Shown: in pieces, positions 1 through 3,000 of the stretch
Layout: every line of letters begins with the position of its first letter
Position numbering within the stretch: position 1 is the stretch's first letter
IMG/VR virus record: IMGVR_UViG_2541047174_000010
Span: 1 to 13,032 of that record
Length of the DNA stretch: 13,032 nt
From: a virus
Taxonomy: Duplodnaviria; Heunggongvirae; Uroviricota; Caudoviricetes
Direction: 5' to 3' (one strand)
Made by a program: the position numbers

Positions 1-3000
1 GTTTGCTGTTTATTAAAAACACTTCTGCATGGTGAATCCCCCTGTGCGGTGGGGCAATCAGCAAGAAGGAATATGGGGTAATCGCGGATTCAGGTGCTGA
101 TACTGAATTCACCGGGAGGCACCCGGCACCATGCTTTGCCACAAAAGTGTTATTTCTGTTTTTCTCAAACTATCATCGTTATCCCTTTATTTCCGGCTGC
201 GCATGGCGCGGCCTTTTTTTTACGACCAGCCACTGGCAGATGGTCATCCTGTGATTTGATTCCGGTTCCGGCTTTTTAACTCTGTTCCTGTACACGGGAG
301 AAATTCGATGTCGATTAAACATTATGATGTTGTCAGGGCGGCGTCGCCGTCAGATCTTGCGGAAAAGCTGACACACAAACTGAAAGAGGGCTGGCAGCCG
401 TTTGGTAGTCCTGTGGCCATAACCCCTTATACCCTGATGCAGGCGATTGCCGCGGAGGGGGATGTGACCACGCCAGTGGTTGTGCCCGGCACGGGGGATG
501 GTGGCTATCCGGGAGTGGTCACCACGGAGCCAGATTATTACTACGTTATTCCACTGGCCGGGCAGTCGAACGGCATGGCTTACGGTGAGGGGCTTCCTCT
601 GCCGCAGACATATGACCGTCCTGACCCGCGTATAAAGCAACTGGCTCGTCGCAGCACAGTGACGCCGGATGGCGCTCCCTGTAAATATAACGACATTATT
701 CCGGCAGACCACTGTCTGCATGATGTACAGGACATGAGCCGTCTTAACCATCCGAAAGCTGACCTGTCGAAAGGTCAGTACGGAACCGTGGGGCAGGGGC
801 TGCATATTGCCAAAAAGCTGCTGCCGTTTATACCGGCGAATGCGGGTATTCTTCTGGTTCCGTGCTGCCGTGGTGGTTCAGCTTTCACCACCGGGGCAGA
901 TGGAACATACAGTGACGTGACCGGTGCCTCAGAGAGTTCTACCCGCTGGGGTGTGGGCAGGCCGCTGTATAAGGATCTCATCGGTCGTACAAAAGCCGCG
1001 CTGGCAAAGAACCCGAAAAATGTGCTGCTTGCCGTGGTGTGGATGCAGGGGGAATTTGACTTTGACGGAACGCCAGCAAATCACACAGCCCGTTTTACAG
1101 AAGTAGTGGAACAATATCGTACGGACCTTGCAGATATGGTGGGACAGTGCGCTGGTGGTTCTGCTGACGGTGTTCCCTGGATATGTGGAGACACAACTTA
1201 TTTCTGGAAGCAGAAGAGCGAATCCACTTACCAGACGGTGTACGGCAGTTACAAAAACAAAACGGAAAAGAATATTCACTTTGTGCCGTTCATGACCGAT
1301 GAGAACGGAGCAAATGTCCCGACGAACAAACCGGAAGAAGACCCGGATATTCCGGCATCAGGATATTACGGTGCGGCCTCCCGGACGTCGGCAAACTGGA
1401 CGTCAGCAGACCGTGCGAGCCATTTCAGCTCATGGGCACGCAGGGGGATTATTTCTGACCGTCTTGCCTCAGCGATTCTTCTCCATGCAGGACGGACGGC
1501 TGAACTGGTGGGTGGGGAACAGGTTGTGATGCCGCCGGATGAGAAGCCGTCACCGGACACACCATCAACACCGTCAACGGACGGGAAATCAGTGACAACG
1601 CTGCTTTATTACCGTGCAACAGAGTCAGGTGGTTTACTGAATCCGCAGGGATGGGGAGCTGAAGGAGGGCGTGCATTGGTAGTTGATGATGCAGGTGCTG
1701 CAGGAGGTAAGGCGCTGAGGTGGACCAAACAGACAGGAAGTTCCTCGTGGTTTATGCAGCATGATGCCGGTAATGGCGCAGACCTGCTGGAGAAGGGCGG
1801 GCTTATCAGTTGTCGTTTTAAAGTTGATGGCACACTGACAGCTAATCAGTACGCACTGGCGCTGTACTGGCCGGTTTCTTCACTGCCTCAGGGTGTCACA
1901 CTGGAAGGTAATGCCGGTCATAACCTGCTGGCGTCGTTTTACGTACAGAGCGATGCCACAGACCTTAATGTGATGTACCACAAGGGAAATGCTGGTCAGA
2001 ACACGAAGCTGGGGTCATTCGGCGCATTTGATAACGAATGGCATACGCTGGGCTTCCGTTTTGCCGGTAACAACAGTATTGAGGTGACGCCGGTCATTGA
2101 TGGTAAGGACGGGACGCCGTTCATGCTGTCACAGTCACCGGTCGGCACGTTTACGGCAGACAAATTGCGCGTGACCGATATCACTAGCGGTGCGACATAT
2201 CCGGTGCTGATTGAAAGTATAACAGTGGAAGTGAATAACCCGTAAGCAGGAAAAAAAGGCCGCCGGGGCAGGGAAAACAAGGAGCCAGAACCGGCGGCAA
2301 ATGTCGTTATATCCAAAGCAAAACATGCAGGACACTTTTTTAACCAACAGGTATTAACGATGTCAACACCATATCAATAACCGGGAGGGATAATGAGATT
2401 TGTACAGCTTATTTTATTGTATTTCTGCACGGTGGTGTGCACGTTATATCTGGTAAGTGGCGGGTATAAGGTTATCCGGAACTATATACGCAAAAAGATT
2501 GATGCCGCGGCGGCGGAAAAAATCAGCGCCAGCCAGTCAGCCGGAACAAAACCCGAAGAGCCTCTCATTTCGTAGCAACTTTCTTAACAACACCTTTCAA
2601 CGAGAAAATCCCATGTCAGAAATAAAATCTCTGGTCACTGCTGAAGCAGTGAAGGACGTCCTGCGCTCTGAAGAAGTCAGAAGCGCACTGAAACAGCAAC
2701 TCCGCCAGAATCTTGAGGCGCGTCTTGATGCTGAAGTGGATGCCATTCTGGATGAGCTGCTGGGGGGACCGGCTGCTCCTGAGCCTGAAGACGGCGCGGG
2801 TGACAGTGCTGTTTCAGATGGCGTTGTGTCTCAGCCTGACGGTAGCAGTGAGCCTCAGCCTGGCGGCGAAATGATGATGTAACCATACGCAGGGGCTGTC
2901 GGTGTGAGCTGATGCCCCTCCTGTTGTTGTGAGCTTCCGGATTGCGGGAGACGGGGTATGTACCAGATGGAAAAAATCACAACGGGTGTGTCATACACCA

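Follow-up and report, generated by a model that had tools for sequence, protein, structure and literature searches.

The analyzed stretch of DNA (hereafter the window) comprises 13,032 nt, positions 1 to 13,032 of the IMG/VR virus record IMGVR_UViG_2541047174_000010 (Caudoviricetes), and carries on its plus strand a nanS-p gene whose product is very probably a NanS-p sialate 9-O-acetylesterase, held as dispensable late-operon cargo of a lambdoid prophage, made on induction and released by lysis. Judged by its sequence, the gene is an already known, previously described nanS-p: the encoded protein has the same sequence (100% identity) as ECs_1527 of Sp6, a lambda-like, non-Stx (Shiga toxin) prophage of Escherichia coli O157:H7 Sakai, and the potC-adjacent prophage of strain EDL933 encodes the identical protein (accession WP_000023170.1). 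The gene is thus a textbook accessory gene of enterohemorrhagic E. coli prophages, with the exact protein present in both O157:H7 reference strains, and it belongs to a family whose role is under revision through virion data for phage phi24B.

Domain architecture and relatives of the esterase

The reading frame and its assignment had both been proposed in a preliminary description made from the sequence alone, and both were confirmed. The open reading frame (ORF) starts with ATG and runs from 308 to 2245 on the plus strand, encoding exactly the 645 aa described, and the features named for a NanS-p-type 9-O-acetyl-sialic-acid esterase (DUF1737, a GQSN motif with Ser87, and a beta-rich C-terminus, here the jelly roll of 6YP6) were all found. 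The gene and its parts are laid out as follows:

296 to 300, plus strand: Shine-Dalgarno sequence GGGAG, 7 nt ahead of the nanS-p ATG, read from the sequence
308 to 2245, plus strand: nanS-p coding sequence, ATG start, 645 aa plus stop, from the ORF list
308 to 475, plus strand: DUF1737 domain (Pfam PF08410), aa 1-56, short-loop variant 'ITPYTLMQ'
533 to 1495, plus strand: SGNH type II/SASA catalytic domain, aa 76-396, from the 3PT5 alignment
566 to 568, 563 to 565 and 1421 to 1423, plus strand: catalytic codons for Ser87, Gln86 and His372, respectively, from the 3PT5 alignment
1592 to 2242, plus strand: C-terminal lectin-like jelly-roll domain, aa 429-645, DUF6645, from 6YP6 and Pfam

The three-domain NanS-p architecture and a NanS-type SGNH core are present in the window protein, and the domain and structure matches are far beyond chance. 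Searches for DUF1737 and for a SASA/SGNH domain were both positive (Pfam; 3PT5). Within the 645-aa protein, Pfam placed DUF1737 (PF08410) at aa 4-50 (E 3.3e-15), SASA (PF03629) at aa 83-275 (E 4.9e-11) and DUF6645 (PF20350) at aa 494-611 (E 7e-71), each scoring above its curated gathering cut-off. A PDB sequence search paired aa 73-391 with NanS/YjhS of E. coli (3PT5, E 2.5e-119) and aa 429-644 with the NanS-p C-terminal domain solved by crystallography (6YP6, E 1e-96); the two large domains are approximately 65-70% identical to the solved structures. Additionally, the match to PHROG 143 spans the full length of the esterase, and an NCBIfam search of the protein returned no match.

The gene for NanS is chromosomal and belongs to the sialic-acid regulon. 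The chromosomal protein (YjhS, 3PT5) shares with the window protein the SGNH type II core, a Ser/His dyad without Asp and a Gln in the oxyanion hole, but it lacks the DUF1737 N-terminal and lectin-like C-terminal domains (PMC10462455). Ser19 and His301 are catalytic in NanS, with the usual Asp absent and Gln18 in the oxyanion hole (PMC9063846), and the counterparts of these three residues in the window protein, by the 3PT5 alignment, are Ser87, His372 and Gln86. The GQSN motif (aa 85-88, its serine being Ser87) and a RASH motif (aa 369-372) are the same kind of blocks, GQSN and RASH/RSSH, that have been described for NanS-p (PMC10462455). At the other end of the protein, the four aromatic residues proposed to form the sugar site in the C-terminal jelly roll of phi24B vb_24B_21 (Y510, Y515, Y540 and F611) are all kept, as Y515, Y520, Y545 and F615.

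The NanS-p proteins of Stx phages (933W z1466, phi24B vb_24B_21 or gp84, BP-4795 ORF43 and Stx2d_112808 yjhS) have the same three domains in 645-648 aa, lie in the same slot ahead of DUF1378, DUF826 and the holin gene, and keep the catalytic and sugar-site residues found in the window protein, at an overall identity of 75-78%. Domain by domain, DUF1737 is 57% identical to that of phi24B (aa 1-56) and 96% to that of BP-4795, the catalytic domain is 87% identical to both, and the C-terminal domain is approximately 70% and 69% identical, respectively, whereas both linkers are approximately 25% or less identical to these two proteins and linker 2 of the window protein has a 7-residue insertion. 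The exact esterase sequence was found on at least 1000 contigs. Among deposited phage genomes none has this allele, the top-scoring match reaching 76.5% protein identity, and one single phage record fell into the 80-90% protein identity band. At the DNA level, 11 positions within nt 1-3026 distinguish the window from Sakai, and only 2 separate it from O157:H7 strain 7636.

The same domain searches bear on a role in adsorption, in which the enzyme would de-O-acetylate the O-antigen or capsule of the next host and so expose a receptor, in the manner of the G7C and Vi esterase tailspikes. Adsorption is left as an open possibility in a review of the family (PMC8065619), and a weak, partial PHROGs match to the 'tail protein' family phrog_25867 (E 2.8e-5, aa 174-275) would be consistent with it. 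Nevertheless, the Pfam and PHROGs searches revealed no tail-attachment or trimerization domain, the core has NanS, a sialate esterase, as its closest match in a family reported as sialate esterases, and nanS-p is distant from the tail genes, occupying the slot between the antiterminator gene Q and the lysis genes. We consider a function in adsorption highly improbable.

Expression, dispensability and the stx question

In the favored explanation of lysis-released late-operon cargo, nanS-p occupies the slot between Q and the lysis genes, which is where Stx phages carry stx. Transcription would originate at pR' beside Q, approximately 1 kb upstream, and the terminator of the intervening small RNA (sRNA) gene would be read through only by Q-modified polymerase. 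On prophage induction, the enzyme would accumulate in the cytoplasm until holin-endolysin lysis frees it, and outside the cell it would remove the 9-O-acetyl group from free or mucin-bound 5-N-acetyl-9-O-acetylneuraminic acid (Neu5,9Ac2), giving N-acetylneuraminic acid (Neu5Ac) that surviving siblings could take up and use, as reported for the EDL933 and O104:H4 alleles.

A simple sigma-70 consensus scan of nt 1-3200 returned 0 promoter-like sites against 2.2 expected by chance, and a strong terminator stands upstream of the gene. Elsewhere, nanS-p of Stx2a phages has been reported to rise by 1-2.4 logs after mitomycin C, co-expressed with stx2a, and z1466 to be induced by norfloxacin. Taken together, the lack of a promoter-like site, the strong upstream terminator and the reported induction support the view that the esterase gene is probably a Q-dependent late gene rather than an autonomous moron. 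The label 'moron' given in the preliminary description therefore holds only in part: the gene is dispensable and its slot has been named the 'moron insertion site' (Tree et al. 2014), but the promoter-like site is missing and a strong terminator precedes the gene. Measured against a strict definition of a moron, no promoter of its own was found and the base composition is not distinct (GC ranges over 0.48-0.58 within the gene and 0.46-0.57 on either side, without an abrupt change), while presence and absence among similar phages was found.

This presence and absence is seen in an O157:H7 prophage (locus L014, 7080-7484), which keeps window nt 191-332 at 95% identity, that is, the terminator, the ribosome-binding site and the first approximately 25 nt of nanS-p. 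Between the remnant and the holin gene stand 263 nt of unrelated sequence, the match to the window resumes at nt 2924, and the locus is best described as a clean deletion or replacement of the block of nanS-p, DUF1378 and DUF826. The sRNA is likewise kept in L014, and the locus is an exact match to the PasD probe sequence. Functional mEp460-like phages that share the head type of the window, such as vB_EcoS-569R4 and PhiR55_1, match the window only from approximately nt 2967 onward, in the holin region. The gene is judged dispensable because L014 has lost it and because the mEp460-like phages match only from the holin.

The preliminary description had also placed the homolog of Stx phages immediately 3' of stx, and it had suggested a check for stx upstream of the window. 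The first statement was verified in BP-4795, Stx2d_112808 and phi24B, in which the esterase gene lies 0.3-0.5 kb downstream of stxB (cat replacing stx in phi24B). For the second, the upstream content was taken from 28 loci that match nt 1-190 of the window. Unlike the Stx phages, which carry stxAB directly upstream of nanS-p, none of the 28 loci has stxA or stxB, and the positive control BP-4795 was detected. In 27 of them, a DUF3927 gene ends approximately 10 nt ahead of nt 1 of the window; beyond it, where annotated, lie a TerB remnant and Q, with Q (PF03589) placed approximately 775 nt upstream in 23 of the 28. Sakai Sp6 has the same upstream order as predicted for the window, namely Q, TerB remnant, DUF3927, sRNA and terminator. 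Since DUF3927 is the next gene upstream in 27 of the 28 loci and stx in none, the stx lead is negative; there is almost certainly no stx gene beside the esterase, and the window can be assigned to a lambdoid prophage of O157/O55 type that is not an Stx phage. A tRNA gene search of the window found none. The sRNA PasA, which flanks this esterase, adjoins stx in fewer than 3% of its chromosomal copies according to the Pas sRNA preprint. For annotation, a nanS-p finding should not serve as a marker of stx.

A separate arrangement was observed in an IMG/VR contig (L022), where a tRNA-Arg (TCT) at 174-250 lies approximately 90 nt upstream of an STnc100-like element, as in Stx phages. The interval between this tRNA and the esterase gene leaves no space for stx, and the esterase allele is near-identical to that of the window (equal length, 99.3% DNA identity, N-terminus MTF vs. 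MSI).

Several points weigh against the explanation as lysis-released cargo. Esterase activity of the window protein on Neu5,9Ac2 is a prediction. The prophage nanS-p alleles of EDL933 are described as all encoding active esterases that support growth on Neu5,9Ac2 and remove O-acetyl groups from mucin glycans (review PMC8065619), and the allele of the window may be among those assayed. The benefit to the lysogen would be a population-level argument drawn from the literature. No hydrophobic stretch was seen at the N-terminus of the esterase, the absence of a signal peptide being judged by this hydropathy heuristic alone, and weak or non-canonical promoters could escape the sigma-70 scan. Lastly, the phi24B homolog is virion-bound via DUF1737, such that free soluble release may be an incomplete story.

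DUF1737, head modules and mosaicism

In a 2026 preprint based on cryo-electron microscopy and proteomics, phi24B gp84 is presented as a capsid-decorating member of the family: residues 2-57, its DUF1737, assemble as hexamers on the central hexons of the T=9 podovirus head with Tyr42 as the anchor, and cleavage following release removes the esterase and lectin domains. The role as accessory cargo for the lysogen, as given in the preliminary description, remains the favored one for the window, but for the family another reading now stands beside it, the phi24B homolog being a virion protein. By analogy with phi24B, the window protein could be a virion component first, with DUF1737 hexamers on capsid hexons displaying the esterase and lectin domains to bind or modify mucus or O-acetylated glycans, and with any benefit to the lysogen being secondary. 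Beyond the capsid docking of the homolog, such a role is favored by the bona fide DUF1737 of the window protein (the 57% identity to phi24B given above) and by the position of the gene in the late operon without a promoter of its own. The anchoring loop itself is less favorable: the DUF1737 loop of the window is unlike those of phi24B and Stx2d_112808, it is 3 residues shorter than in phi24B, and the Tyr42 'tooth' aligns to a gap, with the nearby Tyr41 as a candidate replacement only.

The relationship between loop and head was compared across 99 loci (L001-L103 plus the window) using the N-terminal 60 aa of NanS-p, a sample that is partly clonal, so that a loop-head association may be mere linkage. 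Three loop variants were distinguished. The phi24B-type loop occurs solely with the phi24B terminase/packaging module (4/4 loci) and the 'SYTDDGAALIQ' loop solely with a ClpP-capsid fusion head (10/10 loci), and this perfect tracking of head type by two of the three variants argues for a structural role. Against it, the 'ITPYTLMQ' loop is found with Sp6-type protease-capsid fusion heads (16 loci), with lambda-type heads (15 loci) and, in the window only, with a ClpP-capsid fusion, and an identical esterase allele occurs with all three head types even though the Sp6-type and window capsids show no detectable similarity. The window is the sole locus of the 99 that pairs the ClpP-capsid head with the 'ITPYTLMQ' loop. 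Its head module consists of a GpA-type terminase and the ClpP-capsid fusion, which is not the phi24B type (T=9 podovirus), and its capsid protein is 95% identical to that of Stx2d_112808.

The state of the head genes and the distribution of nanS-p further speak against a primary virion role. The portal gene (7751-9257, plus strand) contains a frameshift close to nt 8778, the intact portal of Stx2d_112808 matching the window in one frame over its residues 1-341 and in another over residues 341-500. The portal of L014 carries the same lesion, and the head module of the window is probably defective. Functional phages of the same head type do without nanS-p, and the gene is deleted in the related O157 prophage. 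A capsid-specific structural role for the esterase copy in the window is unlikely, though the 'ITPYTLMQ' variant in general may have one, and we regard the virion-first account as improbable for the window protein.

A variant of the docking idea was also considered, in which DUF1737 would be a docking module with a head-matched anchor loop and the 'ITPYTLMQ' form would have lost docking to become pure lysogen cargo; this proposal is tentative and, in our estimate, doubtful. If docking were loop-specific, the recombinant seen here, joined within the holin gene, would uncouple the esterase from the virion, and if the proposal were true, the window would offer a snapshot of a structural protein becoming a moron. 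The link between the DUF1737 loop and the head is only a mildly new lead, although it bears on whether all NanS-p proteins are capsid-bound.

The unusual pairing of the 'ITPYTLMQ' loop with the ClpP-capsid head in the window arises from recombination inside the holin gene. Mosaic breakpoints were located near nt 190, 3027 (within the holin gene), 4127 and 11334. As far as the 5' portion of the holin gene, the window is similar to Sp6; at nt 3027, mismatches to the Sp6-type prophage set in abruptly, and from there the window resembles a different O157 prophage at approximately 95% identity, the terminase protein being identical to that of the second prophage. Specifically, the window departs from Sp6 in its RrrD-type lysozyme, DUF1441, GpA-type terminase and ClpP-capsid fusion, and past the capsid gene it diverges once more. 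No complete E. coli genome covers at least 80% of the window, and the exact pattern bridging the holin breakpoint had no match in species-representative genomes. Four IMG/VR contigs share this junction, which therefore is not a one-off assembly artifact; these contigs diverge from the window upstream of approximately nt 190 and beyond approximately nt 4127.

Small RNA, terminators and downstream genes

Two RNA features precede the esterase gene:

27 to 221, plus strand: sRNA gene of the STnc100/PasD family including its own terminator, from Rfam RF02076 and the PasD2 alignment
195 to 221, plus strand: intrinsic terminator, GGCTGCGC-ATG-GCGCGGCC followed by T8, with the hairpin at 195-213, between the sRNA and the esterase

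The Rfam family RF02076 (STnc100) covers window nt 1-167 at 100.7 bits, relative to a gathering score of 47, and the conserved STnc100 core GCATGGTGAATCC is located at nt 27. The 5' end was set at nt 27 through alignment to the mapped 5' end of PasD2 of enteropathogenic E. coli (EPEC) E2348/69, whose coordinates were taken from the supplement of PMC8550237. The terminator scan gave a stem of 8 pairs, 7 of them G-C, and the hairpin was recovered when nt 130-222 were folded. This terminator sits 87 nt before the esterase ATG and is common to PasD2 and L014. A weaker second hairpin with a T run (CCGGTTCCGG CTTTTT, 262-277, plus strand) was observed between the main terminator and the ribosome-binding site of the esterase gene, and the fold of nt 222-300 is no better than that of shuffled sequence (z 0.04).

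The sRNA of the window joins an STnc100-type 5' core, as in Stx phages, to a PasD-type tail and terminator, and is approximately 62% identical to PasD2 and 63% to the STnc100 of phi24B. The PasD seed UGUGAG is absent from it: the window reads CCCUUUAUUUCC where the PasD2/L014 alignment has CCUUGUGAGUUCU. As a U-rich stretch stands in the place of the EPEC PasD seed, the targets of this sRNA probably differ from those of PasD. PasA, which flanks the other side of the esterase in EPEC, is absent from the window by alignment. In phi24B and BP-4795, STnc100 lies between stxB and nanS-p (191-208 bits) and is directly followed by a convergent anti-sRNA, AsxR or AgvB, an arrangement described at the 'moron insertion site' 3' of PR' by Tree et al. 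(2014). Rfam detected neither AsxR nor AgvB in the window, even with the threshold relaxed to E<=1, and the alignment has no counterpart of the convergent hairpin; an identification of the upstream RNA as AgvB/AsxR, considered for a CACAAAA motif near nt 141, was rejected on both counts. Sub-threshold Rfam hits to asX2, ST7-OT4_3, STnc560, osmY and AbsR28 were treated as chance.

The features downstream of the esterase gene, up to the end of the lysis genes, are the following:

2246 to 2345, minus strand: candidate terminator or small transcript converging on the esterase 3' end
2393 to 2575, plus strand: DUF1378 small ORF, a conserved nanS-p companion, from the ORF list, at the same position in O157 genomes and BP-4795
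2613 to 2882, plus strand: DUF826 small ORF, a conserved nanS-p companion, transferred from the annotation of locus L001 (14613 to 14882)
2958 to 3173, plus strand: class II holin gene, from the ORF and from Pfam PF04971 in homologous loci
3173 to 3670, plus strand: endolysin gene, from the ORF and from Pfam Phage_lysozyme in homologous loci L013-L016
3655 to 4134, plus strand: Rz-type spanin gene, from the ORF and from Pfam Phage_lysis in homologous loci L013-L016

The minus strand of nt 2246-2345 folds into a 5' hairpin and an 8-bp GC stem followed by U7 (-31 kcal/mol, z -3.0). Rfam gave no family match for this hairpin, and its identification as PasA was ruled out by sequence. Throughout the DUF826 stretch, the window is identical to L001. 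Together, the holin, endolysin and Rz genes make up a lysis cassette through which the signal-less esterase would leave the cell. Downstream of Rz and ahead of a small-terminase-like DUF1441 gene, nt 4135-4948 (approximately 800 nt) contain no convincing gene, give only chance-level Rfam hits and fall in GC to 0.41; this interval is the region in which a cos site would be expected.

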